Shown one piece after another: positions 40,528 through 60,822 of a stretch of 64,000 bases of DNA (the stretch's first letter is position 1; the number at the start of each line of letters is the position of its first letter). Origin of the DNA: a bacterium (GTDB taxonomy: Bacteria > JAJVIF01). The stretch lies in contig JAJVIF010000001.1 of assembly GCA_022072165.1 (NCBI GenBank), forward strand, positions 1,489,353 through 1,553,352. The letters are read 5' to 3'. The position numbers and the translations under genes are program-made. The notes under the pieces were generated by a model. It saw only the letters and a list, made by a program, of their open reading frames with translations. It made no database searches and was not told the DNA's origin.

Positions 40528-41271
40528 ATGTCTCTCAAAGCCCTGTCAACCGCGAAAATCGAAGCAACTTTCGGCAAGTTCACCTACTCCCCCGCTCCTA
40601 CAGCGGGACACATCGTGATTGATCCTGTGTGGGTCAAAGAGCAGATTGTCAGCCCGGTCCCAGCCCTGAAGCACTTCACCGGGGAACGACGCTGTCATCG
40701 ACGCATCGCGCCCTTCCTGCAGGCGGCGTTTGAGGAAATCGCCCGTCAGGGACTCACCGGACGAGTCCTCACCTGGGGCGGCTCCTTCGTCCCCCGTCAT
40801 AAGAACCACGATCCCAAACGGAGCCTGTCGTCCCACAGCTGGGGAATCGCCTGCGACATCAACGCCCAGTGGAATGGCTACGGCGTCACGCCCCCGCCCA
40901 TCGGCGCGCATGGATCGGTCCGGGAACTGGTACCGATTCTCGAACGATACGGCTTTGCCTGGGGCGGATACTGGGATACCGCCGATGGGATGCACTTCGA
41001 GTTCGCCGACCTCACCCTGCTGGAAGCGGCTCCCCCTGCCCCCGTGCTGCTCCTCATCGATGGCACGCCCCATCCTGAGGTCCCGCTGGTCCGGGATGAG
41101 CAGCGTTTCTTCACGATCGCCGGACCGCTGGGAGCCGCACTGGGACGTCCGATGCCAGCCACCGAAGCCGGGCTGCGGGTCCCCCTCAGGGTGATCGCCG
41201 AGCTCGCGGGGTTCCGCGTGAAGTACCACCGCGACGAGGATCAGGAGCGGATCGAACTGCTGTCGGTCTGA
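40528..41271 (+). CDS. Peptidase M15 (D-Ala-D-Ala carboxypeptidase/VanY-like) with C-terminal Cu-amine-oxidase-N1-like β-domain
   Basis: 'SSHSWGIACDINAQWNGYG…YGFAWGGYWDTADGMHFEF' are M15 zinc-site motifs. C-terminus '…VPLRVIAELAGFRVKYHRDEDQERIEL'. RBS AGGGAAGG 8 nt before the ATG. Confidence 0.65.
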   Translation: MSLKALSTAKIEATFGKFTYSPAPTAGHIVIDPVWVKEQIVSPVPALKHFTGERRCHRRIAPFLQAAFEEIARQGLTGRVLTWGGSFVPRHKNHDPKRSLSSHSWGIACDINAQWNGYGVTPPPIGAHGSVRELVPILERYGFAWGGYWDTADGMHFEFADLTLLEAAPPAPVLLLIDGTPHPEVPLVRDEQRFFTIAGPLGAALGRPMPATEAGLRVPLRVIAELAGFRVKYHRDEDQERIELLSV

Positions 41272-43467: not shown

Positions 43468-43938
43468 TCAGCCAGCGATGTTGATGTGTCGACGCGGCTC
43501 GGCTGCTGCGGGCTCGCTGTCAGCAACAGGAAGGACCGGGGGTTCCGTACGGGATTTGCCGATCACTTCTTCCCAGAGGTCCCGGACCTGTTCGGCGATC
43601 CGCTGCGCTTCCTCAAAGCGGGCGTCATCCTTGCGGATGTTGGCATCCAGCAGGATGTCGTAGACCAGATAGTAGATCCCCTGCAGATGCGGCACATAGT
43701 CCCCCGCTTCGGGATCGAGGGCGATGAGGAGCTCCAGATAGATGTTTTGCGCCTTGATGGTGGCGTTGTGGCAGGTATCGAGCGCGCCTTCCGCCAGAGC
43801 TTTGCGGGCCTGGTGAATGAATCCGACCGCGCCATGCAGCAGCGCCTGAAGCTTGCGCTCCGGAGTCGCGGCGTTGATGGACTGCTCCATGTAGGTTTGC
43901 TTGACGTCCATAAGCGCGCTGTTACGCCTCCTTCGCAC
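43468..43938 (-). CDS. fliS: Flagellin-specific chaperone FliS
   Basis: 'YMEQSINAATPERKLQALLHGAVGFIHQARKALAEGALDTCHNATIKAQNIYLELLIALDPEAGDYVPHLQGIYYLVYDILLDANIRKD' fits the FliS family pattern. True start is probably a few codons downstream. Confidence 0.8.
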   Translation of the reverse strand: MRRRRNSALMDVKQTYMEQSINAATPERKLQALLHGAVGFIHQARKALAEGALDTCHNATIKAQNIYLELLIALDPEAGDYVPHLQGIYYLVYDILLDANIRKDDARFEEAQRIAEQVRDLWEEVIGKSRTEPPVLPVADSEPAAAEPRRHINIAG

Positions 43939-45967: not shown

Positions 45968-46833
45968 GCGTCATCCAGGTCATCGATGCTGACTTCTGTG
46001 ATGCCATCGGTGTCGGCATGGGTCTGTCCGGTGTGGGTCCGGAAGGTCCGGGGGGCCACCTCGGCATCCGACAGCTGCTGGTCCGGGGACTCATCGAACT
46101 CGTCCCCGTCCTCATCGCTCTCCAGCAGGGCCTCGGACCAGGCTCCCTGTGCCGCCCCTTCCTGTCGCTCCCGGGCACGGCGTGCGATCTCTTCCCGGTA
46201 CTCCGGTACCGCCTTCATGGCCGAGTCCAGCAGCAAAGGCATCACGGCGATGAACTGATAGACCAGTGGCGAGAGGTCGTAGGCCGCCACTTCGCCGGCA
46301 GCGGACCAGTCTTCATTTTCGGCAGCCGTCAGGAGTGCTTCGGCCTGCTCCTGCAACCGTTGCTGCAATCTGGCGACACTTCCCCCTTCATCGGACTCCA
46401 GCAGGACCCGGGCGAAGTCCAGTTGCAGGACCGTCCGGACCCCCTCGAGCATGGCCAGGAAGTGCTGCAGCAGTTCCATGCAGGCATCGAGCCCTTCCAG
46501 GCCCTCGTCGAGTTCCCCCTTACGGATCTGCGCTGCGCTGAACTCCAGTGCCCGGGAGAGCTCCGGCAGGTAGTCGGTGGAATGGAGCAGGCTGTCGATG
46601 GCGAGTGCCCGGGGCTCCGCAGTCTGGAGTTCCAGACGTCCAACATTCTCCAGGGCGAAGCCGTAGAGCAGTTCTTCCTGCTCCATCGACAGGGGCTCCT
46701 CATTGAGCTGCAGGCTGGTGACCACGCGCCCACCCGGCACGAGTTCCCGCTCAATGCGCTCCATGAGTTCGCCGAAGCTGGTAAGTCCCTCCAGCAGGAC
46801 CTCCCGCACCTGGCCATCGATGGTGACCTGCAT
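45910..46833 (-). CDS. Hypothetical acidic protein in flagellar filament operon
   Basis: ~308 aa from ATG 46833 ('MQVTIDGQVREV…'). Highly acidic C-terminus '…ESDEDGDEFDESPDQQLSDAEV'. No family recognised. Confidence 0.45.
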   Translation of the reverse strand: MQVTIDGQVREVLLEGLTSFGELMERIERELVPGGRVVTSLQLNEEPLSMEQEELLYGFALENVGRLELQTAEPRALAIDSLLHSTDYLPELSRALEFSAAQIRKGELDEGLEGLDACMELLQHFLAMLEGVRTVLQLDFARVLLESDEGGSVARLQQRLQEQAEALLTAAENEDWSAAGEVAAYDLSPLVYQFIAVMPLLLDSAMKAVPEYREEIARRARERQEGAAQGAWSEALLESDEDGDEFDESPDQQLSDAEVAPRTFRTHTGQTHADTDGITEVSIDDLDDAWQVPRPGSKKSSGDPPVN

Positions 46834-46963
46834 GGTCGTCCGTTCGGTCCTTTGCTCGTCAGGCGCAGCAGCGCCCTGATCCGTGGCCATGAGCGGCCAC
46901 CTCCCGGGAGTTGTCGGCAGCACGGCTGCCGTCTTGAGCGACAGCCCATTATGACGCCGCTCG

Positions 46964-49900
46964 CTAGCGGGCTACGCTGATCCCTGACCCGGTCCCCTGC
47001 TGTTGCGCGCCGAGTCTGGCGGTCAGGAACTGACTGTCCCGCTGGAGCCGCGACAGCGCTCGCTCCACCTCCACGAACTGCTGCCGGATGCGGGCTTCGT
47101 AATCGGCCAGCCGCTCCTCAGCCCGACTCAACTCGGACCCCAATTCGGCGAGGCGCTGGTCCAGCACGCCGCCGGTGGTGATCTGCCGGTTAATGAGCCC
47201 GTTCAGACCGGTGAACTCTTTGAGGCTGTTCTCCAGACGACGTGCAATCCCTGCGGCAGCCTGGGCATCAGCCCCGAAAGTCGAGCCGCTGCTCAGGCCG
47301 ATGGTGTCCTGCAAACTGGCGCCGGCGTTGAGGTCCTGAATGGTGATGAGGGCTTTGCCGACCGTCTCGGTCCGGCTGAACTCCAGCCGCCCGGCGCTGT
47401 TGAGTCGAACGCCAATTTTGTCCGTGAGCCCCGCCTGTCCCAGGGCCGTGGTGATGCGATTGACCAGTTCGGCGCTGGTGTAGTACCCGGCATCAAGGGT
47501 GATGGTGGCGACATTGAGGGCATCGCCCACCGAGAACGAGAGGCGGCTGCCGAGGGTCAGTCCGAAATTCAGGTTGTTCTGGCTGGCGATGACGACTTTG
47601 GATTCCTGCGGATTGCCGAACAGCTGCTGCACGTCATTGGCACGATCTGTCAGCGACTCCCGCAGGGTCGCGTTGCTCTGCAGAGCCGTGAGAATCTCGT
47701 CGGGGTCCGTGGTGTCGGCCACCAGCCAGCCCTTTTGCAACTGGTCGTTCAGCACGCTGGTCCCGACACTTCCGGTATTCAGTCCCAGAGCACCCAGTCG
47801 ATTCAGTGCGGAAGTCACCGACACCACCGGCTCCAGGATCGCCCGGCGACTCTGGGTGACCGCCCGACGAATCGTCTGATCCCGATAAATGAGATCCCGC
47901 GTCAGCAGGGCTTCCCGTCGTGATTCGTATTCATCGATTTCCGCGAAGGTCAGGCTCTGCCGCTGGCGCTCCGTCAGTTCCCGGGTCTGTTCCACCTCAT
48001 CATCGTTCAGCGGCCGGGGATTCAGCAGCAGCAGGGTCTCGTTGTAGCTCACCACGAAATCCCGAATTGCGAGCAGCGACTTCTCGGTATCAACCGTGAT
48101 GTCGATGGCGACCGGGTCGGCACTGACACCAGTCAGATCCAGGGTGACATCGGGGAGAACATCCTTGATGGTGTTGGTGTTCCGGGTGTAGCTGACCCCA
48201 TCCAGGGTGAACTCGGCACTCCGACGCGGCGTACCGATGGTCGTGGTTACGGTCGGCGTGTTGGTCAGTCGCAGCGCAGCGAGGATGTTGGACGAGTCGG
48301 TCACGGCTCCGACCGTGATGCCGGTGGCGGTCGTGGACTCATCCAGCTTCTGCACCAGGCTGAGACGGTCCGTGACCGGGTCATAAGCGGCGGTGACTCC
48401 TGCCGGACTGTTGTTGATTTTCGTGATCAGCGACTGCAGCGTATCGACCCCAGAATCTACGGTCAGCGTGACACCGTTGATCGTGAATGTGCCGCTGGTG
48501 GGGGTGATGCTGAGATTTGATCCCGAAAGCGGGCTGGTGAGCGAAACAGTCCCGGCATCCGCGCCGGGAATCGAAGTGCCGCCGGCAGCTTCCAGCAGTC
48601 CGGCGATCCGCAGGAAATTCGACGTGTCGCCAGGCCCACCGAGGCGGATGCTCCCCTGCCCCGGCGTCGCGTTTTCCAGCGTGATGCGATCCAGCGCTTC
48701 GTCGTAGCGCGCGATGACTCCAGCCCCAGAGCTGTTGATCAGTCCCAGAACGCTGATCACGGTCTGGGTCGCGCTGGTGATGGCGATCACTTTTCCATTG
48801 ATGGTGAACGTGCCGTCAATGTGGTCAATGGCGTTGGTCGATGAGGACTCGACGGTTTGTGCGAACCCGGCATTGATGAGCCCTCGACCGATATCCAGGG
48901 GGGGCGTAGTGGTATTCGTCGACGCGCTGATCCCCGCCTGCCCCAGAATCGCGGCTTTCGTGGCGGGGGCCTGATTCAGTTCGCTGCTCTCGACGGTCCG
49001 GATCTGGGCGACCCCGGCGCTAAACGTGTTCCCCCCCACGCCATTGATCGTGATGCCAGGGATCAGTGTCGTGATGGCGGTCCCTTCCGCCTGACTGATG
49101 ACCGTGCGCTGTTCGGGGCCGCCATTCTCAGGAGTAAAGACCGACACTGCCGTGACATCAGCCGCCAGGGTCGTGGCGTTAGTGGTGGTGACATCGGTGT
49201 CGATGCCAGCGGTGGGATCAAGCAGCGTCTCAAGGATGCCCCCAGCCACATCGGTGAAGCGGAGATTTTCTCCCCCCCGGTTACTGCTGATTCTCAGAAA
49301 GACGCCACCGCCACCATCGTCCACGAGGGTCGCGGTCACCGAAGGGACCTGCCCATTGATCGCCGCGACCAGGTCCTGGACGCTGCTTTGCTCGGTGAGT
49401 CCGAGGATCACGACAGGCGAGGCTCCGCCGGTCCCGGCATCGCGGTCGATGGTGAATCGATTCCAGGTCGTGAGGCCGGGAATGGACCCCAGACGATCCT
49501 GTGGCTGGAGGGAGACGGTCCCGGTGACGGAACCTGCGAGGCCTTCGGAGAAGGTCAGCCGATGGCTCCCCCGGGCAGGGACCGAGAAGGCGGTACTGGT
49601 CGCAAGCTGGCGGGTTTCGGCAGCACCGGTCACCGAGCGGAACATCACCGGCAAAGTCAGGGTGTTCCCGGTCGGGCCACCGTTGTTGAAGGTCAACCCG
49701 AGGCGGGTCTGGCTGGGACCAGCGACCGCATCTGTGACCACGAGCTTGCCGTTTTCGATGGTGGCGAGGGCAGTCCCGGCGTACGCCGTGTTAATCGCTG
49801 CCACCAGATCGTTCAGCGTATGCCCGGCCCCATAGGTGTAGTTCGTGGTGACCAGCGTGCCATCGGGCTGGGTGACATTGAGCGTAATGGAATCCAGGCC

Positions 49901-50827
49901 ATCATCCAGCGACGCGCCGGTGAGCTGATCGAGATTGTTCAGAGGTGTGGTGCCATCGGCGACGACGGCGCTGTTGCCCGTCGTGAAGGTCACGGTCCCG
50001 GTCAGTTCCTGCGCGACTGCTGCGCCGCTTGCCTGGGTGGTCCCGAGGCCAATCGTGAAAGTCGAGCCTGAGAAGTCCGCGTCATTGAAGGTGAGTCCGC
50101 TCAAGGCGAAGTTCCCTGGCTGCGTGATGTCAGTTTCGGTCAGGACCAGTTCGCCCCGGGAGCCGAGCGTCACCTGCACTTCACCACCAAAGGCCGACTG
50201 GATCGTCTGCGTCAGTCGCTGGAGGGTATCGGTGCCGTTTCCCGCGAAAGTGAATGTGGCATTCACCGGTGTGCCATCTTTGCGGGAGCCAGCGATCGTG
50301 ATGGTGTCACCGGCGGTGACCTGTGCAGCGCCGCGCCCTGCCTGCAGGGTCTGGGTGAGCAGGTCGGTGGCTACCGCCCGGGTCCCGCTGAGCTGCTCGC
50401 TGCTGACCTGGATGTTGGAAATCCCGGCAGTGTTCCCCTGGGCGAGGAGCGCCGCCGCCCGGTCGAAGCTCCTGTCTGCAAGTCCGCTGACCGCCCGGGC
50501 ACCCTGTGCCAGTTGTGACACGGTCAGAATCGACTTCCCCGCCGTGGCGTTCAGCCCGGCGGTGATCCGCGCAATCGCTGGATTCGAAACCGCTGCTTTT
50601 TTGCTGAGGTAGGTCGACTCAAGGCGGAGGGCCAGACTGGTCCGTTGCAGCGACAGGAGCTGTGTATTCGCCAGCTGCAGCGTGGACTTCTGTTGCCTTG
50701 CCTGCGTGATCCGGGTCCCCAGAGCCGTGACCGGGAAGCGTCGGGCATCCACGATGGCGCTGACGATGGAGTTGGTGTCGATGCCGGAGGCGAGTCCGCC
50801 GAAGGTGACCGGCCCAAAGTTGACCAT
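46964..50827 (-). CDS. fliD: Flagellar filament cap protein FliD (giant, 1287 aa)
   Basis: N-terminus 'FGGLASGIDTNSIVSAIVDARRFPVTALGTRITQARQQKSTLQLANTQLLSLQ'. C-terminus 'GVLDQRLAELGSELSRAEERLADYEARIRQQFVEVERALSRLQRDSQFL'. Huge Thr/Gly-rich central region. Confidence 0.85.
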   Translation of the reverse strand: MVNFGPVTFGGLASGIDTNSIVSAIVDARRFPVTALGTRITQARQQKSTLQLANTQLLSLQRTSLALRLESTYLSKKAAVSNPAIARITAGLNATAGKSILTVSQLAQGARAVSGLADRSFDRAAALLAQGNTAGISNIQVSSEQLSGTRAVATDLLTQTLQAGRGAAQVTAGDTITIAGSRKDGTPVNATFTFAGNGTDTLQRLTQTIQSAFGGEVQVTLGSRGELVLTETDITQPGNFALSGLTFNDADFSGSTFTIGLGTTQASGAAVAQELTGTVTFTTGNSAVVADGTTPLNNLDQLTGASLDDGLDSITLNVTQPDGTLVTTNYTYGAGHTLNDLVAAINTAYAGTALATIENGKLVVTDAVAGPSQTRLGLTFNNGGPTGNTLTLPVMFRSVTGAAETRQLATSTAFSVPARGSHRLTFSEGLAGSVTGTVSLQPQDRLGSIPGLTTWNRFTIDRDAGTGGASPVVILGLTEQSSVQDLVAAINGQVPSVTATLVDDGGGGVFLRISSNRGGENLRFTDVAGGILETLLDPTAGIDTDVTTTNATTLAADVTAVSVFTPENGGPEQRTVISQAEGTAITTLIPGITINGVGGNTFSAGVAQIRTVESSELNQAPATKAAILGQAGISASTNTTTPPLDIGRGLINAGFAQTVESSSTNAIDHIDGTFTINGKVIAITSATQTVISVLGLINSSGAGVIARYDEALDRITLENATPGQGSIRLGGPGDTSNFLRIAGLLEAAGGTSIPGADAGTVSLTSPLSGSNLSITPTSGTFTINGVTLTVDSGVDTLQSLITKINNSPAGVTAAYDPVTDRLSLVQKLDESTTATGITVGAVTDSSNILAALRLTNTPTVTTTIGTPRRSAEFTLDGVSYTRNTNTIKDVLPDVTLDLTGVSADPVAIDITVDTEKSLLAIRDFVVSYNETLLLLNPRPLNDDEVEQTRELTERQRQSLTFAEIDEYESRREALLTRDLIYRDQTIRRAVTQSRRAILEPVVSVTSALNRLGALGLNTGSVGTSVLNDQLQKGWLVADTTDPDEILTALQSNATLRESLTDRANDVQQLFGNPQESKVVIASQNNLNFGLTLGSRLSFSVGDALNVATITLDAGYYTSAELVNRITTALGQAGLTDKIGVRLNSAGRLEFSRTETVGKALITIQDLNAGASLQDTIGLSSGSTFGADAQAAAGIARRLENSLKEFTGLNGLINRQITTGGVLDQRLAELGSELSRAEERLADYEARIRQQFVEVERALSRLQRDSQFLTARLGAQQQGTGSGISVAR

Positions 50828-50985: not shown

Positions 50986-53580
50986 CTAGCCCCGAAATAA
51001 CTGGAGGACGTTCTGCGGGAGCTGGTTGGCCTGCGCCAGGATGGCGGTGCCCGCCTGCAGGAGGATCTGCGACCGCGTGAACGCGATGGTCTCCTCCGCG
51101 ATGTTGAGATCCCGAATCCCCGACTCCGAAGAGGCGAGATTCTGCCGGGTGATGTCGAGGTTCCGGATGGTGCTCTCCAGGCGGTTTTGCACCGACCCCA
51201 GGTTGGACCGGAGGCTGGAGACCTTGTCGATGGCGACATCTACCGACGTGATCGCGGCCTGGGCGCTGGCGGAGTTCGCCAGGATCAGGCCCCGAATCCC
51301 CAGGCTGTCCGAGGAGACCCCGGATATCGCCAGCGTAAGATCCTGCCCCTGATTCGCGCCAATCTGGAAGTTGATGGCGTTGGGCACCAGGTGGAGGAAA
51401 GTGGTCCCGATGAAGTCGGAAGTCACCGAGATCGTGGGCTTGGCCAGGGGGTCGAGGTTAATCGGCCCGCGGGTGTCATTCGCCCCCGGTCCGGGGACCG
51501 GGTCGAGCTTGAAGCCCTGATTGGTGTTGAACTTCAGTTCCACGCCCCGAATGACGCCGCGAACAGTGCCATCCTGGGTGATGGTCTCGTCGATCAGCGC
51601 CCCGGTCTCGATATTCACGACACTGACTTTGAAGGTCGCCAGCTTGCTGTTCTGGATGGTGAAGAGCGACAGCGCGTTGATGGTCTTCTCATCGCCGATG
51701 AAGGCGAGTTCCGCGCCGGGCACCGGACTGGTGATGGAGATGGTTCCCTTCGCCGGACCGATGAGGTTGAAGTTCACCAGGTTCGGGAAGTTGCCACCCG
51801 CCAGCGTGTCCTCGAGGTTGAGGTCCGAGGTCCGGTTGGGATCGGCGATGGCGAGCGACAGCTTGCCGACCAGGTCCTGCACGGTGTCCGTGGCGTTGAG
51901 GAAGATCGTGGTGCGCCGTCCGGACCCCGGCACGGCCAGTCCGATTTCCACGGTGTCGCGTCCCAGGAAGACATTCTCTGCCTGGAAGCGGCTGATGGAC
52001 CGGAGCTGCGTGTCGAGCTGGGCCACCAGCACGTTGTTGGTCGACGTGTGGAAGATCGCGGTCTCGCCCGCTTCCAGGATGGCATCGAAGCTGATGCGCA
52101 GCCCCTGGAGGGTATCGAGATTCAGTGCGGCGGCCGTACCGGCGCGTCCGATAGAGCCGGTGCCGGACACCGAGCCCGTATCGAGGTTTGTCACCCGGTA
52201 GGTGCGATTGGACAGCGCAGACACCCGGAAGGTGTAGCTGCCGGACACCGCCGACACCTGCACGATCCGGCCATACTGCGCGAACTCGTTCTGCCCCGCC
52301 TTGTTGAAAACGATCTCATCGGTGCCGGTGGAAACACTGGCATCGAAGCGGACATCGATTTCACCCGTGGTGCTGTCGCCGAGCGTGAAGATGCCGCCCG
52401 CGACGTTCTCAATGATCCGGTTGCCGTTGGCGGTGATCGCCACCGACGCGGCATCGATGAAGGCTCGGGTGATGTCTGCCGCGCCCGCTGCGACCGAGAA
52501 AGCGGAGAAGCCGAGGTCGAGCTGGGAGCCGGAAGTATCGACATCTTCCAGGCCGAAGAACGAGAGCGCGATGCTCTGTCCCGCCGCGATCGAAACGGCC
52601 AGTTGCCCGGTGCCGGTCACACTGAACGCGCCGTTGGCACCAATGGAGAAGGCGATGCTCAGGAAGGCGGCCACACTGGAAAGCGTCGTACCCGCGGTGA
52701 TCAACAGCGCGGCATCGACAGTCGAGCCGTTCACACGCTCGCCGCGGACCCGCAGACGGTCTACACCGAGGGTCAGCTCCTTGGCGTTGAAAGTCCCCGC
52801 CAGGTCGTCCGCAGCAACAGCCACAGAGGTCCCCAGCACCGAGATAGTCGCGCTGCCATAGGAGACCAGGAGGCGGCCATTGGTGGTAGTGCTCTGGATT
52901 TCCAGCTCATCAATGCCGATCTGGGAGCCGGTGGCGTTCCGGAAGGAGGCATTGTTGAGGTAGGTGGTCAGCCCGTTGAACGACCCGACCCGATCCTCAG
53001 TGGCGATGGTGTTGAACTGGTCGGTCTTGTAGGTCGCCAGTTCCGGCGGCGCCAGCAGGGTAGTCCGGATCTGGAAGTTGCCACCTTTGCCAACATTCCC
53101 CAGGATGTTGACCTGGACAGTCGAGGGGTCATCCAGGGAGTAGAGGGCCGCAGCGGACCCATCGAGGAGCCGCTTGGTGTTGAACTCCGTGGTCCGGGCG
53201 ATCCGGTCGACCTCGTCGATCAGCTGGTCCACTTCCTTCTGGATTTCGAGGCGGTCGCTGGAGGTGAGGACTCCGTTCGCCGCCTGGATCGCCAGTTCGC
53301 GGATCCGTTGCAGGATCGTGTTGGTCTCGGCCAGCGCCCCTTCCGCCGTCTGGAGGAGGCTGATCCCCTCCGAGGCATTCTGGGACGCCCGGGCGAGTCC
53401 CCGGACCTGCGCCCGCAGGCGCTCCGAAATCGTGAGACCGGCGGCGTCATCCGCCGCCCGGTTGATTCGCAAGCCGGTGGAGAGTCGTTCGACGGATCGC
53501 TCCAGGTGCCGGCTGGTCTGCGCCAGACTGCGGGTCGCATTCAGCGCAATGATGTTCTGATTGATCTGCAGGACACCCAC
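50986..53580 (-). CDS. fliC: Flagellin (giant, ~865 aa), paralog 1
   Basis: GTG start at 53580 with GGAGG 10 nt upstream. N-terminus 'GVLQINQNIIALNATRSLAQTSRHLERSVERLSTGLRINRAADDAAGLTISERLRAQVRGL'. C-terminus 'RSNLGSVQNRLESTIRNLDITRQNLASSESGIRDLNIAEETIAFTRSQILLQAGTAILAQANQLPQNVLQLF'. The track ORF extends upstream without support. Confidence 0.9.
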   Translation of the reverse strand: MGVLQINQNIIALNATRSLAQTSRHLERSVERLSTGLRINRAADDAAGLTISERLRAQVRGLARASQNASEGISLLQTAEGALAETNTILQRIRELAIQAANGVLTSSDRLEIQKEVDQLIDEVDRIARTTEFNTKRLLDGSAAALYSLDDPSTVQVNILGNVGKGGNFQIRTTLLAPPELATYKTDQFNTIATEDRVGSFNGLTTYLNNASFRNATGSQIGIDELEIQSTTTNGRLLVSYGSATISVLGTSVAVAADDLAGTFNAKELTLGVDRLRVRGERVNGSTVDAALLITAGTTLSSVAAFLSIAFSIGANGAFSVTGTGQLAVSIAAGQSIALSFFGLEDVDTSGSQLDLGFSAFSVAAGAADITRAFIDAASVAITANGNRIIENVAGGIFTLGDSTTGEIDVRFDASVSTGTDEIVFNKAGQNEFAQYGRIVQVSAVSGSYTFRVSALSNRTYRVTNLDTGSVSGTGSIGRAGTAAALNLDTLQGLRISFDAILEAGETAIFHTSTNNVLVAQLDTQLRSISRFQAENVFLGRDTVEIGLAVPGSGRRTTIFLNATDTVQDLVGKLSLAIADPNRTSDLNLEDTLAGGNFPNLVNFNLIGPAKGTISITSPVPGAELAFIGDEKTINALSLFTIQNSKLATFKVSVVNIETGALIDETITQDGTVRGVIRGVELKFNTNQGFKLDPVPGPGANDTRGPINLDPLAKPTISVTSDFIGTTFLHLVPNAINFQIGANQGQDLTLAISGVSSDSLGIRGLILANSASAQAAITSVDVAIDKVSSLRSNLGSVQNRLESTIRNLDITRQNLASSESGIRDLNIAEETIAFTRSQILLQAGTAILAQANQLPQNVLQLFRG

Positions 53581-53837
53581 GTCGGTGATTCCTCCATGAA
53601 TACCGTGTTGGTGATGGGCCCCGGGGAAAATGCAACGACGGCGAGCGGCTGACCTGGGCTTCAGTCCGACTCCGTCGGCGCAGGAAGCCTGGCAGCGCTC
53701 ACCGGCGACTGCGCGGGGCGCGGTACTGGCCCTCGCGTTGCCATCCCTGACAACGCGACGGATGTCCCGCAAGGTGGGGTGCCCTCCTGGCAGCCGCATC
53801 CTAGCAGGGGACCGGGAACTGCTCCGGTCCGTTCCCC

Positions 53838-53864
53838 GGTATCGGCAGCCAGCCGAGGGCCTTG
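53838..53864 (-). promoter_or_regulatory. Sigma-28-like promoter of flagellin 1
   Basis: Minus strand: TCAA-N15-GCCGATAC. Identical architecture upstream of flagellin 2. Confidence 0.55.
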
Positions 53865-53989
53865 AGCCAGGAAATGAAGAAAGGTGGGGCTGGCACTCGA
53901 ACAGCCACTGGCGGTCACACTGCGTCTTCAGGGCGTTCAAACTGAAACTGCGATGTAAGAAAATTTACTGAATCTCATGCCGAAACCCC

Positions 53990-54018
53990 TTGACGCGGCC
54001 TTAACGAGACGGCATATT
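53990..54018 (+). promoter_or_regulatory. Sigma-70-like promoter for Cys-rich cassette 1
   Basis: TTGACG-17 nt-CATATT about 40 nt upstream of ATG 54059. AT-richer context than the surrounding sequence. Confidence 0.4.
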
Positions 54019-54058
54019 GACGCCAGTTGTTATTTCCAGTGCATCTAGGAGGCCTGCC

Positions 54059-54511
54059 ATGTTGTTCAGAGTGTTCCTCGTGATCCTCTGTACGCTGGGT
54101 TTCTCAGGATCGACTCTCGCGCCCGCCCAGGCGGCGGACTGCTGTTGTTACCGGACCAGTGTCGTGCTGTGGGAGGACTGGTGGTATTGCCAGGTGGACT
54201 GCACACAGCAGGACCCCGCAGAGCTGTGCAAAATCAGGAAGCGCTGCCAGGGCTATACCGTCTCAGGAAAGTGCAAAACGAGCTGGTTCAGTTGCCTGGG
54301 GCACACGATGCTCTCGTGCGGATCAGCACCGGTCACCGGACAAGTCACCTGTGAGTATGAACTGGTGAATCCGGAAGATCCCAACTGTGTTGCAGACCCG
54401 GAGCAGATCGCGCTCTGCATCAACATCGACTGCCCAACTGCACCGCCGCCAGGCGAGTACCACTGCAATCTGGGCGGACCCTGCTGTGACACAAGTGGTA
54501 ACTGCTCATGA
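54059..54511 (+). CDS. Secreted small cysteine-rich protein (CCCYR family), copy 1
   Basis: GGAGG RBS. Signal peptide 'MLFRVFLVILCTLGFSGSTLAPAQA'. Mature ~125 aa with ~18 Cys: 'DCCCYR…YCQVDCTQQDPAELCKIRKRCQGYTVSGKCK…CCDTSGNCS'. Paralog of 55785..56240. Confidence 0.75.
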   Translation: MLFRVFLVILCTLGFSGSTLAPAQAADCCCYRTSVVLWEDWWYCQVDCTQQDPAELCKIRKRCQGYTVSGKCKTSWFSCLGHTMLSCGSAPVTGQVTCEYELVNPEDPNCVADPEQIALCINIDCPTAPPPGEYHCNLGGPCCDTSGNCS

Positions 54512-55569
54512 AGCCCGAGCGTACCGTTGTCGCACATCTGTTCAATCGGAAGGAGAGTCCTGAATTGCGTACCCTGATCCTGTTCGTTTTGTGTCTGGTG
54601 TTCGCGGGGTGCTCGGCGAAGCGCACCAACAACACCACGACATCGCAGGATGTTATCGCTGCACCAAACCATGCCCTGACTCTGGTGCAGCAGTTCACGC
54701 CGGCTGATGAAGAGGCTCAGTGGTACCTCGCGGGGGACCCCCGGGCCATCGCGTTTGTACAGAGCAGCCGGATGAGCAGTGCTTTCGAATGGGCCATCAC
54801 TGGCTACCTGCGGGCGTATGGGCATCTGCCAGCCACTGTGGATGATCTGCTGGAGAGTGGCCTGGTGCTCTTCACACCGACTCGCCCGGATGGCACCCCG
54901 TATCCGTTCCAGGTGGTCCAGACGCTGCCCGAAGAGCCATCGACCGAAGCAGTACTGCTTGCCAAGGAAGGGGCGATCCTGCGGGGATGGTTACCTCCCG
55001 TCGATGCCAGCGTGAAGGCACGCCGCATCTATGTCAATCTGGATAAGCGCTACCAGATGTACAACTCGCGGCAGACGGTCATGCCGACCGTACCGCAGGC
55101 TGTCCTCGCGAATCGGGTCGCGCAGCAGGCATCCATCGGGGGCCTCTCACCAGGTGCCTTCGCCAACCAGTTCCTGCATCAGTCGGATGGACTGGAGGAG
55201 CAACGGGCGGTCGCGCTGCTGGCTGCGAGCATCGGACTGATGAGCATGGATGCGCAGGCCCGGGGTCGGGTGGCGACCTCGCTGGAAGCCGTCCTGCAGG
55301 CGCATCGTCTCGCGTTTCGCGATGTCGCGACCGTCACCGGAAATGTCGATCTGCTGGACTATCCTCTGGGAGTGCAATTGCGGACCTCGACAGACCGGAA
55401 TCTGCTCCAGATCGCCATCAAGCCGAGTATCGAGGGACTGGATTACCAGTTGCTGAAGTTCATGCCGGATTACTCACTTGGGCGCGTCACGAAGCTGGAT
55501 TTGTCAGGCGATGTCGCACCGCAGGAGGCCGGGTGTCACGACCTGGTCGCGACCCTCGTGCTGCAGTAG
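54508..55569 (+). CDS. Putative lipoprotein partner of Cys-rich protein, copy 1
   Basis: ATGA overlap with the upstream gene. Lipobox 'LVFAGC'. Paralog of 56275..57273: shared '…G(Y)YR..G.LP….LLE.GL…' region and C-terminal 'GC.(E/D)(V/L)(L/V).TL(L/V)L'. Confidence 0.65.
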   Translation: MKPERTVVAHLFNRKESPELRTLILFVLCLVFAGCSAKRTNNTTTSQDVIAAPNHALTLVQQFTPADEEAQWYLAGDPRAIAFVQSSRMSSAFEWAITGYLRAYGHLPATVDDLLESGLVLFTPTRPDGTPYPFQVVQTLPEEPSTEAVLLAKEGAILRGWLPPVDASVKARRIYVNLDKRYQMYNSRQTVMPTVPQAVLANRVAQQASIGGLSPGAFANQFLHQSDGLEEQRAVALLAASIGLMSMDAQARGRVATSLEAVLQAHRLAFRDVATVTGNVDLLDYPLGVQLRTSTDRNLLQIAIKPSIEGLDYQLLKFMPDYSLGRVTKLDLSGDVAPQEAGCHDLVATLVLQ

Positions 55570-55607
55570 TTTCCCCCAGAGCGAGAGGTGTGACGGGGAA
55601 GTGGCCG

Positions 55608-55645
55608 AGCCCGGGAGTCCGCTCCCGGGCTCGCGTGTTGCTGGA
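55608..55645 (+). terminator. Possible terminator after cassette 1
   Basis: Stem GAGCCCGGGAG/CTCCCGGGCTC with loop TCCG, followed by GCGTGTTGCTGG, which is only weakly U-rich. Confidence 0.4.
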
Positions 55646-55712
55646 GGGGGAATGAGCCAGCTTCCTGTGCAGTCACAGGCTGCAAATTACCCAGGAAAGC
55701 CGACTTACTTAG

Positions 55713-55747
55713 TTGACAAGAGAGAGAGAGAGAGAGAGAGAATATCT
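55713..55747 (+). promoter_or_regulatory. Putative promoter of Cys-rich cassette 2 with (AG)11 tract in the spacer
   Basis: Consensus TTGACA at 55713-55718, then (AG)11, then AATATCT. The spacer between -35 and the candidate -10 'ATATCT' is about 23 nt, against an optimal 17. Confidence 0.45.
55719..55740. repeat. (AG)11 dinucleotide microsatellite
   Basis: Perfect 22-nt AG tract read directly from the sequence. No other dinucleotide tract of this length occurs in the window. Confidence 0.95.
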
Positions 55748-55784
55748 CCACTCATAGAACGTCGAGCGTAGGAGGTCTTACAGG

Positions 55785-56240
55785 ATGCGCGCGTACTTCG
55801 CTTTGCTGAGCACGCTGATGGTTCTCTTCCTTTTCGCCATTCCTTCTGAAGCTTCGCAGCAGTGTTGCTGCTACAGAATTGTGAGCTTTAGCTGGATTGG
55901 CCTAAACGTATGCGACGTTGACTGTACTGAAGCTGACCCCCCAGAGCTTTGTGAAGTGGAAAAGTACTGTTGGGGGACCAACGTCAACGGCAAGTGCAAG
56001 AGCCACTCTGGGTCTTGCGGAATTGGGAACTGGACGCCTACGAACTGTGGTTCGACAGGGCAGTATGGTTCCTATACGTGCACACTCACACCAACTAATC
56101 CCAACGACCCGGCCTGCTTCGATACGGAAGAGGAACTACGCCTCTGTATTGAAGTAAACTGCTTACCGGACCCCAATCCCACCTCATACACCTGCCCGCT
56201 GGGTGGCACCTGCTGTCACGCAAACGGGAACTGCAAATAG
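55785..56240 (+). CDS. Secreted small cysteine-rich protein (CCCYR family), copy 2
   Basis: GGAGG RBS. Signal peptide 'MRAYFALLSTLMVLFLFAIPSEA'. 'QQCCCYR…VCDVDCTEADPPELCEVEKYCWGTNVNGKCK…CCHANGNCK'. Cys positions align with copy 1. GC visibly lower (~50%) than the window. Confidence 0.75.
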   Translation: MRAYFALLSTLMVLFLFAIPSEASQQCCCYRIVSFSWIGLNVCDVDCTEADPPELCEVEKYCWGTNVNGKCKSHSGSCGIGNWTPTNCGSTGQYGSYTCTLTPTNPNDPACFDTEEELRLCIEVNCLPDPNPTSYTCPLGGTCCHANGNCK

Positions 56241-56274
56241 CCCACTCTTTTACTCAAGACTGGAGGTCTTCGCC

Positions 56275-57273
56275 ATGAAGTTCACCCCGATTCTCCTGAT
56301 CTGCGGCGTCGTGTTGATGGGCTGTCAGCAGGCCCGCGAGCAAGCTGCACCCGCGGCACCAAAGGAACCCACCGCCGCACCCGTTGCACAGGGTTTTGAG
56401 CCTTCCAATGCCATCTCTCGAGGATTGCTGGCAGGCGATATGGCCAGCCGGCAGACGGTTCGCACGAGTCTTCTCAAGGGCGAGTTGATGCACGCCGCGC
56501 TGGGGTACTACCGAATGATGGGCGAGTTGCCATCGCACGCAGCGCCACTGCTGGAGCAGGGTCTGCTGATGCACACCACCACGGACAGCAGCGGTCAGGC
56601 GATGCCCTGCCAGGCGGTCGACTCGCTGCCAACGGAGGCGGCCGCAGACCGGATGCTCCTTGCGATCGAAGGCGACCGGCTGCGGGCCTGGATCCCAGCT
56701 CTGGGAGAGGGAGCCCCTGCCCGCATTGCGGAGATTGCGATGTCCGGTCAAGTGCAGACACGGGCAGTCAGGGAGATCGGGCAACTGCCACTGCAGGATG
56801 CCGTTCTGCTAAAAGAGGAGTTGCGGCAGGCCGCCGCCGAGTCAGGCGGGCCTGCCAACGCCGGAGTGAATCAGTACATTCATCGTTCCCGGGGTGCTGC
56901 AGAGCAGCGACTGAGAGCGCTGAACTGGGCGAGCCTCGGCGTGTTGAATCGCGGCGCCGCGATCCTCGGACGCGCCCCGGAATCGTATGGGGAGGTGCTC
57001 CCCATGCTGGGACTGGCACCGTTGGGGTATCGCCTGGAAGATGGTCCAGTGAAGCTGCTGGAACAGCCGCTGGGTGTCCAGTACATCGCGACCCTGGATC
57101 GTCAGCGGGTGCTGATGTATCAGAAGCCCTCCATGCCTGCGCTGGACTACCAGATGCTGCAGTACGTCCCTGATGCGCGGACTGGGGAAGTCGCCATGTC
57201 CGAAGTGGGCGACACCATTGTTCCGGAGAGTTCAGGCTGTACCGAGGTACTGGGGACGCTGCTGTTGCCATAA
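56275..57273 (+). CDS. Putative lipoprotein partner of Cys-rich protein, copy 2
   Basis: GGAGG RBS before ATG 56275. Lipobox 'VLMGC'. Paralog of 54508..55569. Confidence 0.65.
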   Translation: MKFTPILLICGVVLMGCQQAREQAAPAAPKEPTAAPVAQGFEPSNAISRGLLAGDMASRQTVRTSLLKGELMHAALGYYRMMGELPSHAAPLLEQGLLMHTTTDSSGQAMPCQAVDSLPTEAAADRMLLAIEGDRLRAWIPALGEGAPARIAEIAMSGQVQTRAVREIGQLPLQDAVLLKEELRQAAAESGGPANAGVNQYIHRSRGAAEQRLRALNWASLGVLNRGAAILGRAPESYGEVLPMLGLAPLGYRLEDGPVKLLEQPLGVQYIATLDRQRVLMYQKPSMPALDYQMLQYVPDARTGEVAMSEVGDTIVPESSGCTEVLGTLLLP

Positions 57274-57308
57274 GCCTGGTCCGCCATTGCTCTTCCAACG
57301 ACCCTCGA

Positions 57309-57341
57309 TGCCCGGGAGGAACCTCCCGGGCATTTCGTTTT
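57309..57341 (+). terminator. Rho-independent terminator after cassette 2
   Basis: GCCCGGGAGG-AA-CCTCCCGGGC followed by ATTTCGTTTT. Confidence 0.75.
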
Positions 57342-57352
57342 CCCCACACACA

Positions 57353-57393
57353 CAAAAGAGCCCCGGGACGGGAGTGACCTCCCGGACCGGGGC
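57353..57393 (-). terminator. Terminator for flaG (convergent)
   Basis: Minus strand: CCCCGGTCCGGGAGG-TCAC-TCCCGTCCCGGGGCTC followed by TTTTGTGTGTG. Confidence 0.5.
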
Positions 57394-57415
57394 CTTGCGA
57401 TGACTGTGCGTACCT

Positions 57416-57820
57416 TTACGCACTCAGGTCGGTGAGGACTCCCCGTCCCTCCGCCAGAGCGGCAGCGAGCCGCTGCGCTTCTTCGGACGGAATCTGGCGG
57501 AGCACTTCACCGGTGCGGTCGTTGATGATCCGTACTACTACCTGGCCGCTGTCCTGCACGTCGATCTGCGCTTTGATCTCGAAGAGGTCAAAGGTGAGAT
57601 TGACCTTGCGGAGCGCTTCTGCCAGTTCCTGCAGCGAACGGGGCTGCGGCAGGGGTGGAGCAGAAACGGACGGCAAGACAGCCGGCGCTGGCGCGCTGGC
57701 CGCATCTGGCGGCGCAGCAGGCACAGCTGAAACGTCGGCGGACGCGATCACAGGGCGGGCCTGCTTCGCTGCCGGCGCCGGAGCCGGGCGACCCGGACCA
57801 GTGAGGGGGTCAAGAGACAT
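57416..57820 (-). CDS. flaG: Flagellar protein FlaG
   Basis: C-terminus 'NLTFDLFEIKAQIDVQDSGQVVVRIINDRTGEVLRQIPSEEAQRLAAALAEG' is a FlaG family signature. GGGAGG RBS. 50 nt downstream of flagellin 2. Confidence 0.75.
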   Translation of the reverse strand: MSLDPLTGPGRPAPAPAAKQARPVIASADVSAVPAAPPDAASAPAPAVLPSVSAPPLPQPRSLQELAEALRKVNLTFDLFEIKAQIDVQDSGQVVVRIINDRTGEVLRQIPSEEAQRLAAALAEGRGVLTDLSA

Positions 57821-57870
57821 CTCGCCACCTCCCTATCCCGTGTGCCGTCGCTCTTGCCATAGCCGTACGG

Positions 57871-60462
57871 CTACCGGAAGAGCTGCAGCGCGTTCTGCGG
57901 CAGCTGATTGGCCTGCGCCAGGACCGCCGTCCCAGCCTGCAACAGGATCTGGTTGCGGGTGAAGGCGAGGGTCTCCTCCGCGATGTTGAGGTCGCGGATG
58001 CCGGATTCCGACGCCGCCAGATTCTGTCGGGTGATCTCCAGGTTCCGGATCGTGCTCTCCAGGCGGTTCTGCACGGACCCAAGATTTGACCGGAGGCTGG
58101 AAACCTTGTCGATAGCGACATCGACCTTGGTGATCGCCGCCTGCGCGCTGTCGGTGTTCGCCAGAATCAGGCCTTTGAGGCCCAGGCTCTGGCTGGAGAC
58201 GCCCGCGATGGCGAGGGTCAGATCCTGTCCCTGATTCGCGCCAATCTGGAAGTTGATGGCGTTGGGCACCAGGTGCAGGAAGTTGGTGCCGACAAAGTTC
58301 GACGAAATCGAGATCGTCGGCTTGTCGAGCGGGTCGAGGTTGATGGGGTTGCGGGTGTCGTTCTGGCCGGTACCGTTCACCGGATCGAGCTTGTACCCCT
58401 GGGTGGTGTCGAAGTTGATCTCCACGCCCCGGATGACACCCCGGACGAAGCCGTCGGTGGTCTTCAGGGACTGCACCAGGGCTCCCGACTCCACATCCAC
58501 AATGCTCACCTGGTACGACGGGAGCTTGCTGTTCTGGATGGTAAAGAGGGAGAGGGCGTTGAGGGTCTTCTCATCGCCGATGAAGGCGAGTTCGGCCCCC
58601 GGCACCGGGCTGGTGATGGAGATGGTCCCCTTTGCCGGACCGGTGAGGTTGAAGTTCACCAGGTTCGGGAAGTTCCCCCCTGCGAGGGTGGCTTCGAGGT
58701 TGAGGTCGTTGGTCCGGTTCGGGTCGGCGATGGCCAGCGAAATCTTGCCGACCAGGTCCGCCACCGTATCGGTCGCGTTGAGATAGATGGTGGTGCGGCG
58801 TCCCTGACCGGGGACCGCGAGTCCGATTTCCACGGTATCGCGCCCGGTGAAGACCCCTTCCGCCTGGAAGCGGCTGATGGACTTCAGCTGGGTGTCGAGC
58901 TGGGCGACCAGCACGTTGTTGGTGGAGGTGTGGAAGATCGCGGACTCGCCCGCCTCCAGGATGGCATCGAAGCTGAGGCGCAGGCCCTGCAGCGTGTCGA
59001 GACCCAGCGATGCGGCAGTCCCGGCCCGTCCGATGGACCCGGTCCCGGAGACCGAGCCGGTGTCGAGGTTCGTCACGCGGTAGGTCCGGTTCGAGAGCGC
59101 CGAAATCCGGAAGGTGTAGCTCCCGGAGACCGCCGACACCTGGACCAGCGTGCCGTATTGCGCAAACTCGTTCTGTCCCAGCGTGTTGAAGACCAGTTCG
59201 TCGGTGCCGGTGGTGACATCGGCGCTGAAGCGGATGTCGATCTCGCCCGTCGAGCTGTTGCCCAGGGTGAAGATGCCGCCGGTGACGTTCTCAATGACCC
59301 GGTTGCCGTTGGCGGTGATCGCCACCGACGCCGCATCGATGAAGACCCGGGAGATATCGGAGCCGCCGGCCGCCACGGACAACGGGGTAAACCCGAGGTC
59401 GAGCGTCGATCCCGAGTTGTCGAGATCATCCAGCCGGAACGAGCTGATGGCGATGCTCTGGCCCGCCCCAATCGAGACCGCGAGGGTTCCGGTGCCGGTG
59501 ACGCTGAACGCGCCGTTGGCACCCACGGAGAACGCGAGGCTCATGAAGGCGGCGACACTTCCCAGCGTGGTCCCAGCGGTGATCAGGAGGGAGGCATCGA
59601 CTGCCGCCCCACCGGTGTTGGTCCCGGTCACGCGCAGGCGGTCGACCCCGAGGGTGATCTCCTTCGCATTGAAAGTCCCGGCCAGGTCATCGGCAGCAAC
59701 CGCCACCGAGGTCCCGAGCACGGAGACGGTCGCGCTCCCGAAGGAAACCAGGAGCCGGCCATTGGTGGTGGTGCTCTGGATTTCCAGTTCGTCGATGCCG
59801 ATCGCCGTCCCCGTCCCGCTGCGGAACGTGGCGTTGTTGAGGTAGGTGGTCAGGCCGTTAAACGAGCCCACCCGGTCCTCGGTGGCGATGGTGTTGAACT
59901 GGTCGGTCTTGTAGGTCGCCAGCTGCGGGGCGTCCAGCAGGGTGGTCCGGATCTGGAAGTTCCCCCCCTTGCCGACATCGCCCAGGATATTGACGCTGAC
60001 GGTCGTGGGGTCGTCCAGGGAGTAGAGGGCGGCCGCCGAGCCATCCAGGAGTCGCTTGGTGTTGAACTCCGTGGTGCGGGCAATGCGATCGACCTCGTCG
60101 ATCAGCTGATCGACTTCCTTCTGGATTTCGAGCCGGTCGTTGGAAGTGAGGACACCGTTCGCGGCCTGGATCGCCAGCTCGCGAATCCGCTGGAGGATGG
60201 TGTTGGTCTCCCCCAGCGCGCCTTCCGCCGTCTGGAGGAGACTGATCCCCTCCGAGGCATTCTGCGACGCCCGGGCCAGGCCCCGGACCTGCGACCGGAG
60301 TCGCTCGGAAATCGTGAGACCGGCGGCGTCATCCGCAGCGCGGTTGATGCGCAGGCCAGTGGAAAGCCGCTCGACAGAACGTTCCAGCGCTTTGCTGGTC
60401 TGGGAGAGGCTGCGGGTCGCGTTGAGTGCGATGATGTTCTGATTGATCTGCAGAACACCCAT
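57871..60462 (-). CDS. fliC: Flagellin (giant, 863 aa), paralog 2
   Basis: ATG 60462 with GGAGG RBS. About 85% amino-acid identity to paralog 1 over the full length, including the central domain. Confidence 0.9.
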   Translation of the reverse strand: MGVLQINQNIIALNATRSLSQTSKALERSVERLSTGLRINRAADDAAGLTISERLRSQVRGLARASQNASEGISLLQTAEGALGETNTILQRIRELAIQAANGVLTSNDRLEIQKEVDQLIDEVDRIARTTEFNTKRLLDGSAAALYSLDDPTTVSVNILGDVGKGGNFQIRTTLLDAPQLATYKTDQFNTIATEDRVGSFNGLTTYLNNATFRSGTGTAIGIDELEIQSTTTNGRLLVSFGSATVSVLGTSVAVAADDLAGTFNAKEITLGVDRLRVTGTNTGGAAVDASLLITAGTTLGSVAAFMSLAFSVGANGAFSVTGTGTLAVSIGAGQSIAISSFRLDDLDNSGSTLDLGFTPLSVAAGGSDISRVFIDAASVAITANGNRVIENVTGGIFTLGNSSTGEIDIRFSADVTTGTDELVFNTLGQNEFAQYGTLVQVSAVSGSYTFRISALSNRTYRVTNLDTGSVSGTGSIGRAGTAASLGLDTLQGLRLSFDAILEAGESAIFHTSTNNVLVAQLDTQLKSISRFQAEGVFTGRDTVEIGLAVPGQGRRTTIYLNATDTVADLVGKISLAIADPNRTNDLNLEATLAGGNFPNLVNFNLTGPAKGTISITSPVPGAELAFIGDEKTLNALSLFTIQNSKLPSYQVSIVDVESGALVQSLKTTDGFVRGVIRGVEINFDTTQGYKLDPVNGTGQNDTRNPINLDPLDKPTISISSNFVGTNFLHLVPNAINFQIGANQGQDLTLAIAGVSSQSLGLKGLILANTDSAQAAITKVDVAIDKVSSLRSNLGSVQNRLESTIRNLEITRQNLAASESGIRDLNIAEETLAFTRNQILLQAGTAVLAQANQLPQNALQLFR

Positions 60463-60795
60463 AGTGGTTTCCTCCGTGAAACCCTAAACGTGGGTGAGCA
60501 GCTGCCGAAAAAGAAAATGCGCGTCCGCAGCCCCCGGCGTACGGCTCCGACGCTCCGCGTCTGAAACCTCCGGGGTCTGTGGCACCCGCATCTACGGCAG
60601 CCGTTTGTCGCGATGTCTGTGGAGGCCACCCCCCACGGGATGGCGACGGACGCGCCTCACCCTCCTGGTGCCAGCGTGACCGGCGGGGGCAGACGGCTGT
60701 GAACTCGTCTGCAGCAGATCCTCCGATGACTGTCACCCAGAGCCCCATACCCCGACCGGGCGCCGGTCGCGGCTGAAAATCCGGGTTATCGCTGG

Positions 60796-60822
60796 GTATC
60801 GGCAGCCCGGCTTGAGGCTTGA
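60796..60822 (-). promoter_or_regulatory. Sigma-28-like promoter of flagellin 2
   Basis: Minus strand: TCAA-N15-GCCGATAC, the same element as upstream of flagellin 1. Confidence 0.55.

Follow-up and report, generated by a model that had tools for sequence, protein, structure and literature searches.

What is the function of four genes that lie on the opposite strand between two flagellin genes and encode proteins of no recognised family? The question is raised by positions 54059–57273 of contig JAJVIF010000001.1, in a stretch of 64,000 nt of DNA from an uncultured bacterium that we refer to as the window and whose numbering is used throughout unless another contig is named. Here we report that this plus-strand cassette consists of two modules, each encoding an exported cysteine-rich protein (CysA or CysB) and a lipoprotein (LipA or LipB), and that the Cys and Lip proteins, as judged by their sequences, are a new protein family pair. 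We propose, with a probability of about 0.4, that the products are an accessory, polymorphic cognate pair of envelope proteins, for which a secreted effector or ligand with a cognate lipoprotein is the favoured version.

Two paralogous modules and their products

Module A is composed of cysA (54059–54511, plus strand), which encodes a Sec-signal protein of 150 aa and carries AGGAGG 6 nt before its ATG, and lipA (54565–55569, plus strand), which encodes a lipoprotein of 334 aa. Module B is composed of the cysA paralogue cysB (55785–56240, plus strand; 151 aa) and the lipA paralogue lipB (56275–57273, plus strand), which encodes a lipoprotein of 332 aa and has GGAGG 8 nt before its ATG. Shine-Dalgarno sites precede all four genes, and the gaps between cys and lip genes are 53 nt in module A and 34 nt in module B. 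CysB is identical to NCBI MCG3152041.1, and the window belongs to a metagenome-assembled genome whose contig carries MCG3152039–41. CysA and CysB are 41% identical (E 7e-35) and LipA and LipB 33% identical (E 1e-50), so that by alignment the four plus-strand genes are two paralogous modules, with a paralogy well past chance. The original prediction of a tandemly duplicated two-gene module is borne out by the paralogy of both pairs, and its ~18 positionally conserved cysteines beginning CCCYR were found at matching positions in both proteins. The copies are indeed diverged, but the figure of ~45% identity given for them was somewhat too high.

The longest open reading frame of lipA begins at 54508, and an ATGA overlap with cysA, and hence translational coupling, had been predicted for this first copy. 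It is most likely, however, that lipA starts at TTG 54565, because the 19 codons which the upstream ATG adds N-terminally are not kept in the alleles of the metagenomic contigs L001 and L004, the codon at 54565 is ATG in L003 and L014, it is preceded by its own AGGAG, and it gives a normal lipoprotein signal of 16 residues. The predicted overlap is probably an artefact of the upstream in-frame ATG.

Comparison with the orthologues in metagenomic contigs gave ratios of nonsynonymous to synonymous substitution (dN/dS) of 0.15–0.30 for all four genes (0.15–0.23 for cysA, 0.22 for cysB, and 0.18 for lipB), and therefore all four are real coding genes under purifying selection. The extreme rarity of the family, and the loss or decay of module B in some strains, might be taken to indicate spurious reading frames or functionless, decaying pseudogenes. 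We give practically no credence to this reading, which is contradicted by the dN/dS values in all four genes; the frames stay intact across alleles with a synonymous divergence (dS) of up to 1.7, the cysteine scaffold is invariant down to 35% identity, and Shine-Dalgarno sites and export signals are kept. Minus-strand reading frames that overlap the cassette were dismissed, as they overlap frames under purifying selection.

By inspection, both Cys proteins have Sec-type signal peptides with AxA-type cleavage (marked by an arrow), MLFRVFLVILCTLGFSGSTLAPAQA↓AD in CysA (APAQA↓AD) and MRAYFALLSTLMVLFLFAIPSEA↓SQ in CysB (IPSEA↓SQ). The mature chains, of 125 and 128 residues, are acidic (pI 4.4) proteins of ~13.7 kDa that consist of 14% Cys, with 18 Cys each and CCCYR at the start. 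The cysteine spacing is kept as CCC-x13-C-x3-C-x8-C-x5-C-x8-C-x6-C-x7-C-x10-C-x11-C-x9-C-x4-C-x10-C-x5-CC-x5-C. When the four Cys sequences that diverge most are aligned, 17 of the 18 Cys columns are invariant as opposed to 15% of the non-Cys columns; the cysteine frame is fixed and the loops between cysteines vary. The proteins are rich in Trp, Tyr, Pro, and Gly and are predicted to be beta/coil, with only two, non-conserved His and no or one Met. The CXXCH and CxxCxxC motifs of heme and Fe-S binding were seen on inspection in no family member, and the Cys spacing contains no conserved CxC/CxxC clusters of the metallothionein type. The AlphaFold2 (AF2) model of mature CysA had a predicted local distance difference test score (pLDDT) of 41.5 and was judged unusable, and no fold search was made with it.

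The lipoproteins were recognised by inspection from their lipoboxes, which are VFAG↓C in LipA, with Ser at +2, VLMG↓C in LipB, with Gln at +2, and in L003, and LLTS↓C in L001; the lipobox Cys is invariant across the Lip alignment. In LipA and LipB, a low-complexity tether of 30–40 residues follows the lipobox, and the two proteins share one conserved Cys near the C-terminus, ..GC(H/T)(D/E).., which is missing from the homologue in contig L005. The AF2 model of LipA is of low confidence (pLDDT 52); in it, the N-terminal half is a long helix followed by a sheet and the C-terminal half is a helical segment followed by a beta-rich part. A Foldseek search of the PDB with this model found no match. 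Comparison with type IV pilins and type II secretion system (T2SS) pseudopilins (PilA4 6xxd, EpsG 4lw9, and GspK 3ci0) gives only a hint of a pilin-like fold, which is a fold-level hint and not membership and comes from a model with a pLDDT of only 52. Lip differs from these proteins in that a lipobox replaces the prepilin leader (G-F-T-L-x-E), which is lacking at its N-terminus. Membership of the GspG family was rejected on the hhalign probability of 0.1% between the Lip alignment and an approximate EpsG/PulG/XcpT (GspG) alignment, and Pfam T2SSG gave no match. Comparison of one half of Lip with the other revealed no significant internal duplication.

The only distant homologue of the Cys proteins is P0007, on contig L005 (E 1.6e-11, 35–41% identity), which has 20 Cys and, by inspection, a signal cleavage site at PRSPALA↓VD. 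A lipoprotein of 324 aa, P0020 (lipobox MLPA↓C), is encoded 40 nt downstream and is a remote homologue of LipA and LipB (hhalign probability 92.5%, E 5e-7). The neighbours of this module are a CPBP-protease fragment, a CofH/MqnC-type radical-SAM gene, and dinB, and the module lies between the radical-SAM gene and dinB. Because L005 keeps the pairing away from flagellar genes, the conserved unit is the two-gene module and not the flagellar context.

Apart from this locus, the searches found the family only in close relatives. None of the four proteins matched Pfam or NCBIfam at E ≤ 1, nor was there a match at E ≤ 10 across all family members; this includes the Pfam family YTV, as no Pfam family matches any of the 9 members at E ≤ 10, and the CysA string GYTVSG is unconserved in CysB and P0007. 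Scans of PADLOC and PHROGs with the four proteins and the L005 pair gave nothing significant. The sole PADLOC match, of MzaB to LipB, was non-significant (E 0.0036, 13.8 bits), and PHROGs spanin matches were rejected as weak and limited to the lipoprotein signal peptides. Profile searches of PDB sequences with the Cys and Lip alignments found no match. A hidden Markov model search of 1.84 billion representative proteins with the Cys alignment yielded three genuine clusters at 50% identity (CysA-type, CysB-type, and P0007), and four further matches (P0008–P0011) were judged spurious, being repetitive multi-stretch matches. Word-indexed searches of 5.8 billion proteins found lipoprotein relatives in this clade and P0020 only. 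No relative of the Lip alignment or of the flagellin central domain was found among 185,579 GTDB species representatives, and neither a scan of viral contigs with the Cys alignment nor a tblastn search of plasmids produced a match. Literature searches on the sample accessions and on a flagellar operon of a Cys-rich protein plus a lipoprotein returned nothing relevant. The two families had been described as unrecognised from the start, and the Pfam, NCBIfam, PADLOC, PHROGs, and PDB searches were likewise empty.

Divergent alleles and transcription units

Between the window and L001, dS is 0.10–0.17 for flaG and fliC2, 0.13 for cysB, and 0.31 for lipB; in module A, by comparison, it reaches 0.72 for cysA (75% aa identity) and 1.70 for lipA (48% aa identity). 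In a sliding comparison of the same two sequences, nucleotide identity falls from 99–100% to 44–69% over ~53800–55500 and then recovers. This trough, together with the contrast in dS, indicates that module A and its promoter exist as two deeply divergent, swapped alleles in a near-identical backbone. Module B varies in its presence. The window strain (10 contigs, 7 distinct places shown) has it intact, as do L013, L001, and L002, but it is absent from L003, in which 230 unrelated bp (L003 2622–2852) stand in place of 55633–57357 and homology stops just past the hairpin downstream of lipA. In L014 (2760–3200) module B is decayed: an internal deletion fuses the start of cysB to its last 21 codons, and lipB is cut down to residues 218–331. 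Moreover, the GC content at third codon positions (GC3) is 0.63–0.74 in the cassette versus ~0.76 in typical window genes and 0.85–0.88 in the flagellins, and 0.59–0.66 in the L005 module versus 0.78–0.80 in its flanks, which fits an accessory, modestly expressed, and possibly transferred unit and not an abundant structural protein.

Module A is preceded by a sigma-70-like promoter, TTGACG-17 nt-CATATT (53990–54018, plus strand), which is the sole promoter-like match in 53400–57900. Five loci share its −35 element, TTGACGCGG, without change, in DNA that around it is only 69–89% identical; the −10 hexamer varies. Upstream of cysB, in TTGACA-A(GA)10-GAATAT (55713–55745, plus strand), a dinucleotide repeat fills the spacer of a putative promoter. 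Between a conserved TTGAC(A/G) and GAATA(T/C), this putative spacer ranges from 21 nt in the window through 19 nt in L013 to 17 nt in L001 and L014, and the repeat of L001 (3622–3650) and L014 is broken by single substitutions. The (GA)n layout resembles that of phase-variable promoters. The (GA)11 tract (55720–55741) is identical in eight assemblies of the window strain, and its length differs only between strains.

Downstream of lipA there is a GC-rich hairpin with a stem of 11–13 pairs (55604–55634, plus strand), the U-tail of which is degenerate in the window and a proper TTTTGTTT tail in relatives. Module B ends in an intrinsic terminator (57307–57334, plus strand) with a 12-bp stem and a UUUCGUUUU tail (fold −26.9 kcal/mol, z = −6.5), and a related CCCGGGAG...CTCCCGGG hairpin follows each lip gene. 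Each module thus has two genes between a TTGAC −35 box and a hairpin, and forms a promoter-to-terminator unit of its own.

Position between the flagellin genes

The cassette is divergent from fliC1 (50986–53580, minus strand), which encodes a large flagellin of 864 aa with a GTG start, and convergent with flaG (57416–57820, minus strand; Pfam FlaG), beyond which lies fliC2 (57871–60462, minus strand; 863 aa, Pfam Flagellin_N/C). The two flagellins are 86% identical in aa and 82% in nt sequence and lie in direct orientation. A filament-associated or sheath factor came first among the roles originally predicted. In this reading, the knot protein would coat, cross-link, or regulate a filament of large, glycosylated flagellins, and the lipoprotein would be its chaperone or anchor. 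It is in agreement with such a role that the cassette lies between fliC1 and flaG-fliC2 in every clade contig that reaches the flanks (L001–L003, L006–L010, L013, and L014), and that the locus also carries the ~860-aa flagellins, a 1287-aa FliD, and flagellin-glycosylation genes. However, only close relatives, with flanks ~95–100% identical to the window, show the linkage, which is therefore uninformative, inherited synteny, whereas the sole distant homologue, in L005, lies away from flagellar genes. Regulation also sets the cassette apart. The sigma-28-type motif TCAA-N14-16-GCCGATA occurs three times in the 64-kb window against 0.07 expected, always on the minus strand, and the motif search places TCAAG-N15-GCCGATA at the putative promoters of fliC1 (53840–53865, minus strand, divergent from cysA), fliC2 (60797–60822, minus strand), and the flgK operon (30896–30922, minus strand); extra GCCGATA boxes precede flgA, flgG, flgF, and fliD. 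No GCCGATA is found within 54059–57273 or before the cassette, so that a promoter type present at both flagellins and at the flgK operon is missing from a cassette that is encoded on the other strand and has a promoter and terminators of its own. Moreover, module B is dispensable, being absent from L003 and decayed in L014, the codon bias of the cassette is far under that of the flagellins, and its products have no similarity to any flagellar family in Pfam or NCBIfam. The proposed tie to the flagellum was thus not upheld, as the linkage to flagellin genes does not extend to L005, a sigma-28 promoter is lacking, and copy number varies. In our view the cassette is not a flagellar component, a functional tie to the flagellum is not supported, and a flagellum-associated role is improbable.

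The flagellin genes themselves have long 5′ leaders, of ~250 nt in fliC1 (53581–53830, minus strand) and ~330 nt in fliC2 (60463–60790). The fliC1 leader is 99–100% identical between strains, which is above the coding regions, and both have CA(U/C)GGAGGAA at their ends, in the region of the Shine-Dalgarno site. These features suggest post-transcriptional control, which may be of the CsrA/FliW type. A plus-strand frame of 109–113 aa upstream of cysA (53630–53971) was dismissed; it sits in the 100% conserved fliC1 leader and looks conserved because that leader is.

Past the flagellins, the flagellar/glycosylation cluster holds genes for FliD, Maf/MptE-like, NeuB, and PseB-like proteins as well as the flgFGAHI and flgKL genes. 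The extracellular parts of this flagellum are unusually large, with FlgL of 907 aa (25756–28479) and FliD of 1287 aa (46964–50827) in addition to the flagellins of 863–864 aa, and they are adjoined by the glycosylation genes for the Maf/MptE-like protein (43922–45967), NeuB (41280–42329), and the PseB-like protein (39405–40583). Two proteins of this cluster belong to no Pfam family: an acidic protein of 337 aa (45910–46923, minus strand) encoded between the Maf-like gene and fliD, and a signal-peptide protein of 594 aa (37516–39300, minus strand). Elsewhere in the window, a transfer-messenger RNA gene (8985–9349, minus strand) with the tag peptide GNASYALAA overlaps a long spurious reading frame (9068–10513). 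At 20515–22416 (minus strand) the longest frame encodes a Pro/Arg/Ser-rich repeat (PPRRRPxxRSRP...); instead of a gene, it may be an artefact of reading high-GC DNA in the wrong frame. Two adjacent secreted proteins of 622 and 410 aa (12066–15184, plus strand) resemble, by eye from their translations, what we take to be a DUF1800/DUF1501 pair. Such pairs are common in the Planctomycetes-Verrucomicrobia-Chlamydiae (PVC) group and in some other phyla, and a likeness judged by eye is no firm guide to taxonomy.

Possible roles of the Cys-Lip pair

Seen directly in this locus are the gene structure, the export signals (by inspection), paralogy, purifying selection, the kept pairing, independence from flagellar gene context and promoters, and polymorphism in alleles and copy number. 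On this basis, we propose that each unit of TTGAC −35 box, two genes, and hairpin terminator specifies a cognate pair of cell-envelope proteins. The Cys protein would be exported by Sec and cleaved by signal peptidase I, and in the periplasm its 18 Cys would most likely form nine disulfides, giving a rigid acidic knot of ~13.7 kDa with variable loops. The lipoprotein would consist of a tether of ~30–40 residues and two alpha/beta domains, and it is probably anchored in the outer membrane because its +2 residue is not Asp. It may bind the knot protein, and by doing so either neutralise it, as an immunity protein would, or hold and present it as a receptor or anchor. The pair would then be an accessory, strain-variable "contingency" island lodged between direct-repeat flagellin genes. 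As the leading mechanism, we favour the secretion of an effector or bacteriocin-like ligand that has a cognate lipoprotein and acts in cell-cell antagonism or recognition. The idea of a secreted factor with its cognate lipoprotein was already present in the original prediction and is still the most economical reading, as the pairing is kept in the sole distant homologue. About half of the probability that we give to the cognate pair would fall to its specific toxin-immunity version.

Co-divergent swapped alleles, tandem paralogues, loss and decay, and atypical codon usage fit an effector-immunity, ligand-receptor, or surface-contingency locus. Immunity proteins anchored in the envelope are well known, for example in the colicin M-Cmi pair and in the peptidoglycan-amidase effectors of type VI secretion systems with their Tsi/Tai partners. 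The cassette is like these systems in that the gene of a secreted protein is followed by that of an envelope-anchored partner, in that tandem paralogues and presence/absence variation occur, and in that the putative effector and partner genes, lying side by side, have diverged jointly as alleles swapped within a conserved backbone. It differs in that no sequence or fold is shared and that a plain Sec signal is not accompanied by a nearby delivery or release system. Several of our own results weigh against the proposal. Searches of Pfam, NCBIfam, PADLOC, PHROGs, and the PDB found no homology to a toxin, immunity protein, adhesin, or receptor, and the lipoprotein is 2.5 times the size of the putative effector, which is unusual for an immunity partner. 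In all its genes dN/dS stays below 1. Next to the cassette there is neither an export or delivery system nor a gene for lysis, the neighbours being flagellar or housekeeping genes in the window and in L005, and a Sec signal alone reaches only the periplasm. Module B of L014 is broken in both its genes and retains no orphan immunity gene. The structure models are of low confidence (pLDDT 52 and 41.5). Finally, there is one distant locus only, L005, which is 5.7 kb long, and the (GA)n tract is of one and the same length in the eight assemblies of the window strain.

Three other roles in the envelope have to be considered beside the cognate pair. The disulfide-rich protein may form a cross-linked layer, in the periplasm or at the surface, that is tethered by the lipoprotein. 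A Sec-exported protein of 14% Cys encoded next to a lipoprotein gene would suit such a structure, and the conserved C-terminal Cys of LipA and LipB could form an intermolecular disulfide. Precedent comes from the planctomycetes, in which YTV cysteine-rich proteins co-fractionate with a lineage-restricted lipoprotein in wall preparations (PMC8567305). Like the YTV proteins of the PVC group and chlamydial OmcA/OmcB, the Cys proteins are Cys-rich envelope proteins with a signal peptide, a lipoprotein association, and a narrow lineage distribution. However, neither Pfam YTV nor any other family matches them, the even Cys count (18, or 20 in P0007) leaves no obvious free thiol, and the L005 homologue of Lip lacks the C-terminal Cys. 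A core wall component would not typically show the low GC3 and codon bias, the variable copy number, and the swapped alleles of the cassette, which differs from the YTV and OmcA/OmcB proteins in being accessory and polymorphic and not core. In the chlamydial OmcA/OmcB operon, the small Cys-rich protein is itself the lipoprotein, whereas the lipoprotein of the cassette has one conserved Cys. We therefore regard a structural role as unlikely.

It is also conceivable that the knot protein is a surface adhesin or ligand, for which a pilin-like lipoprotein would serve as export helper or stalk, with diversifying pressure exerted by phages, predators, or hosts. This possibility deserves some attention but is doubtful, as the Lip model has a pLDDT of 52 and an empty Foldseek result, hhalign against GspG gave 0.1%, the internal-repeat signal is not significant, and no surface-lipoprotein export factor was seen; moreover, lipA is more divergent than cysA, which makes it ambiguous which partner is exposed. 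The high Cys content with its CCC and CC clusters would, lastly, be compatible with a periplasmic metal-thiolate protein for storage or detoxification, similar to metallothionein or Csp, with an accessory lipoprotein. We consider this very improbable. There is no conserved CxC/CxxC, no CXXCH, and no conserved His, with no or one Met; Trp, Tyr, Pro, and Gly abound in the protein, which is predicted to be beta/coil; Sec export of an unfolded chain to an oxidising compartment favours disulfides; and neither in the window nor in L005 is there a metal-resistance gene in the neighbourhood.

With regard to the preferred cognate pair, a parallel in kin recognition may be drawn with the TraA/TraB receptor of Myxococcus. 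TraA is large and has several domains, including PA14-like and MYXO-CTERM parts, and the identity of its alleles defines compatibility. As in TraA/TraB, the cassette encodes a polymorphic Cys-rich envelope protein, with Cys-rich repeats in the case of TraA, together with a co-transcribed partner; there is no homology, and no sign of cell-cell recognition was seen. One might speculate that a nine-disulfide knot and a two-domain lipoprotein serve in allele-specific kin discrimination, antagonism, or as a phage decoy, that the (GA)n tract is possibly phase-variable, and that the flagellin repeats act as a landing pad for recombination, but taken as a whole we hold this scenario to be rather far from likely.

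It is very unusual for a secreted bacterial protein to have nine potential disulfides in ~125 residues, and at every intact locus this one is accompanied by a lipoprotein of its own. If the pair were only a lineage-specific pair of envelope proteins, its interest would be local. If it is an effector with its immunity protein, or a ligand with its receptor, it would add a new scaffold to the molecules of bacterial antagonism and recognition, and the fixed cysteine frame with its variable loops could be engineered. The locus is also a clean natural case in which, within a flagellin region that is otherwise highly conserved, an allele has been replaced and modules have been gained, lost, and left to decay. 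It shows that unrelated cargo of an accessory kind can reside between duplicated flagellin genes, and that caution is needed when function is deduced from position in a flagellar locus.

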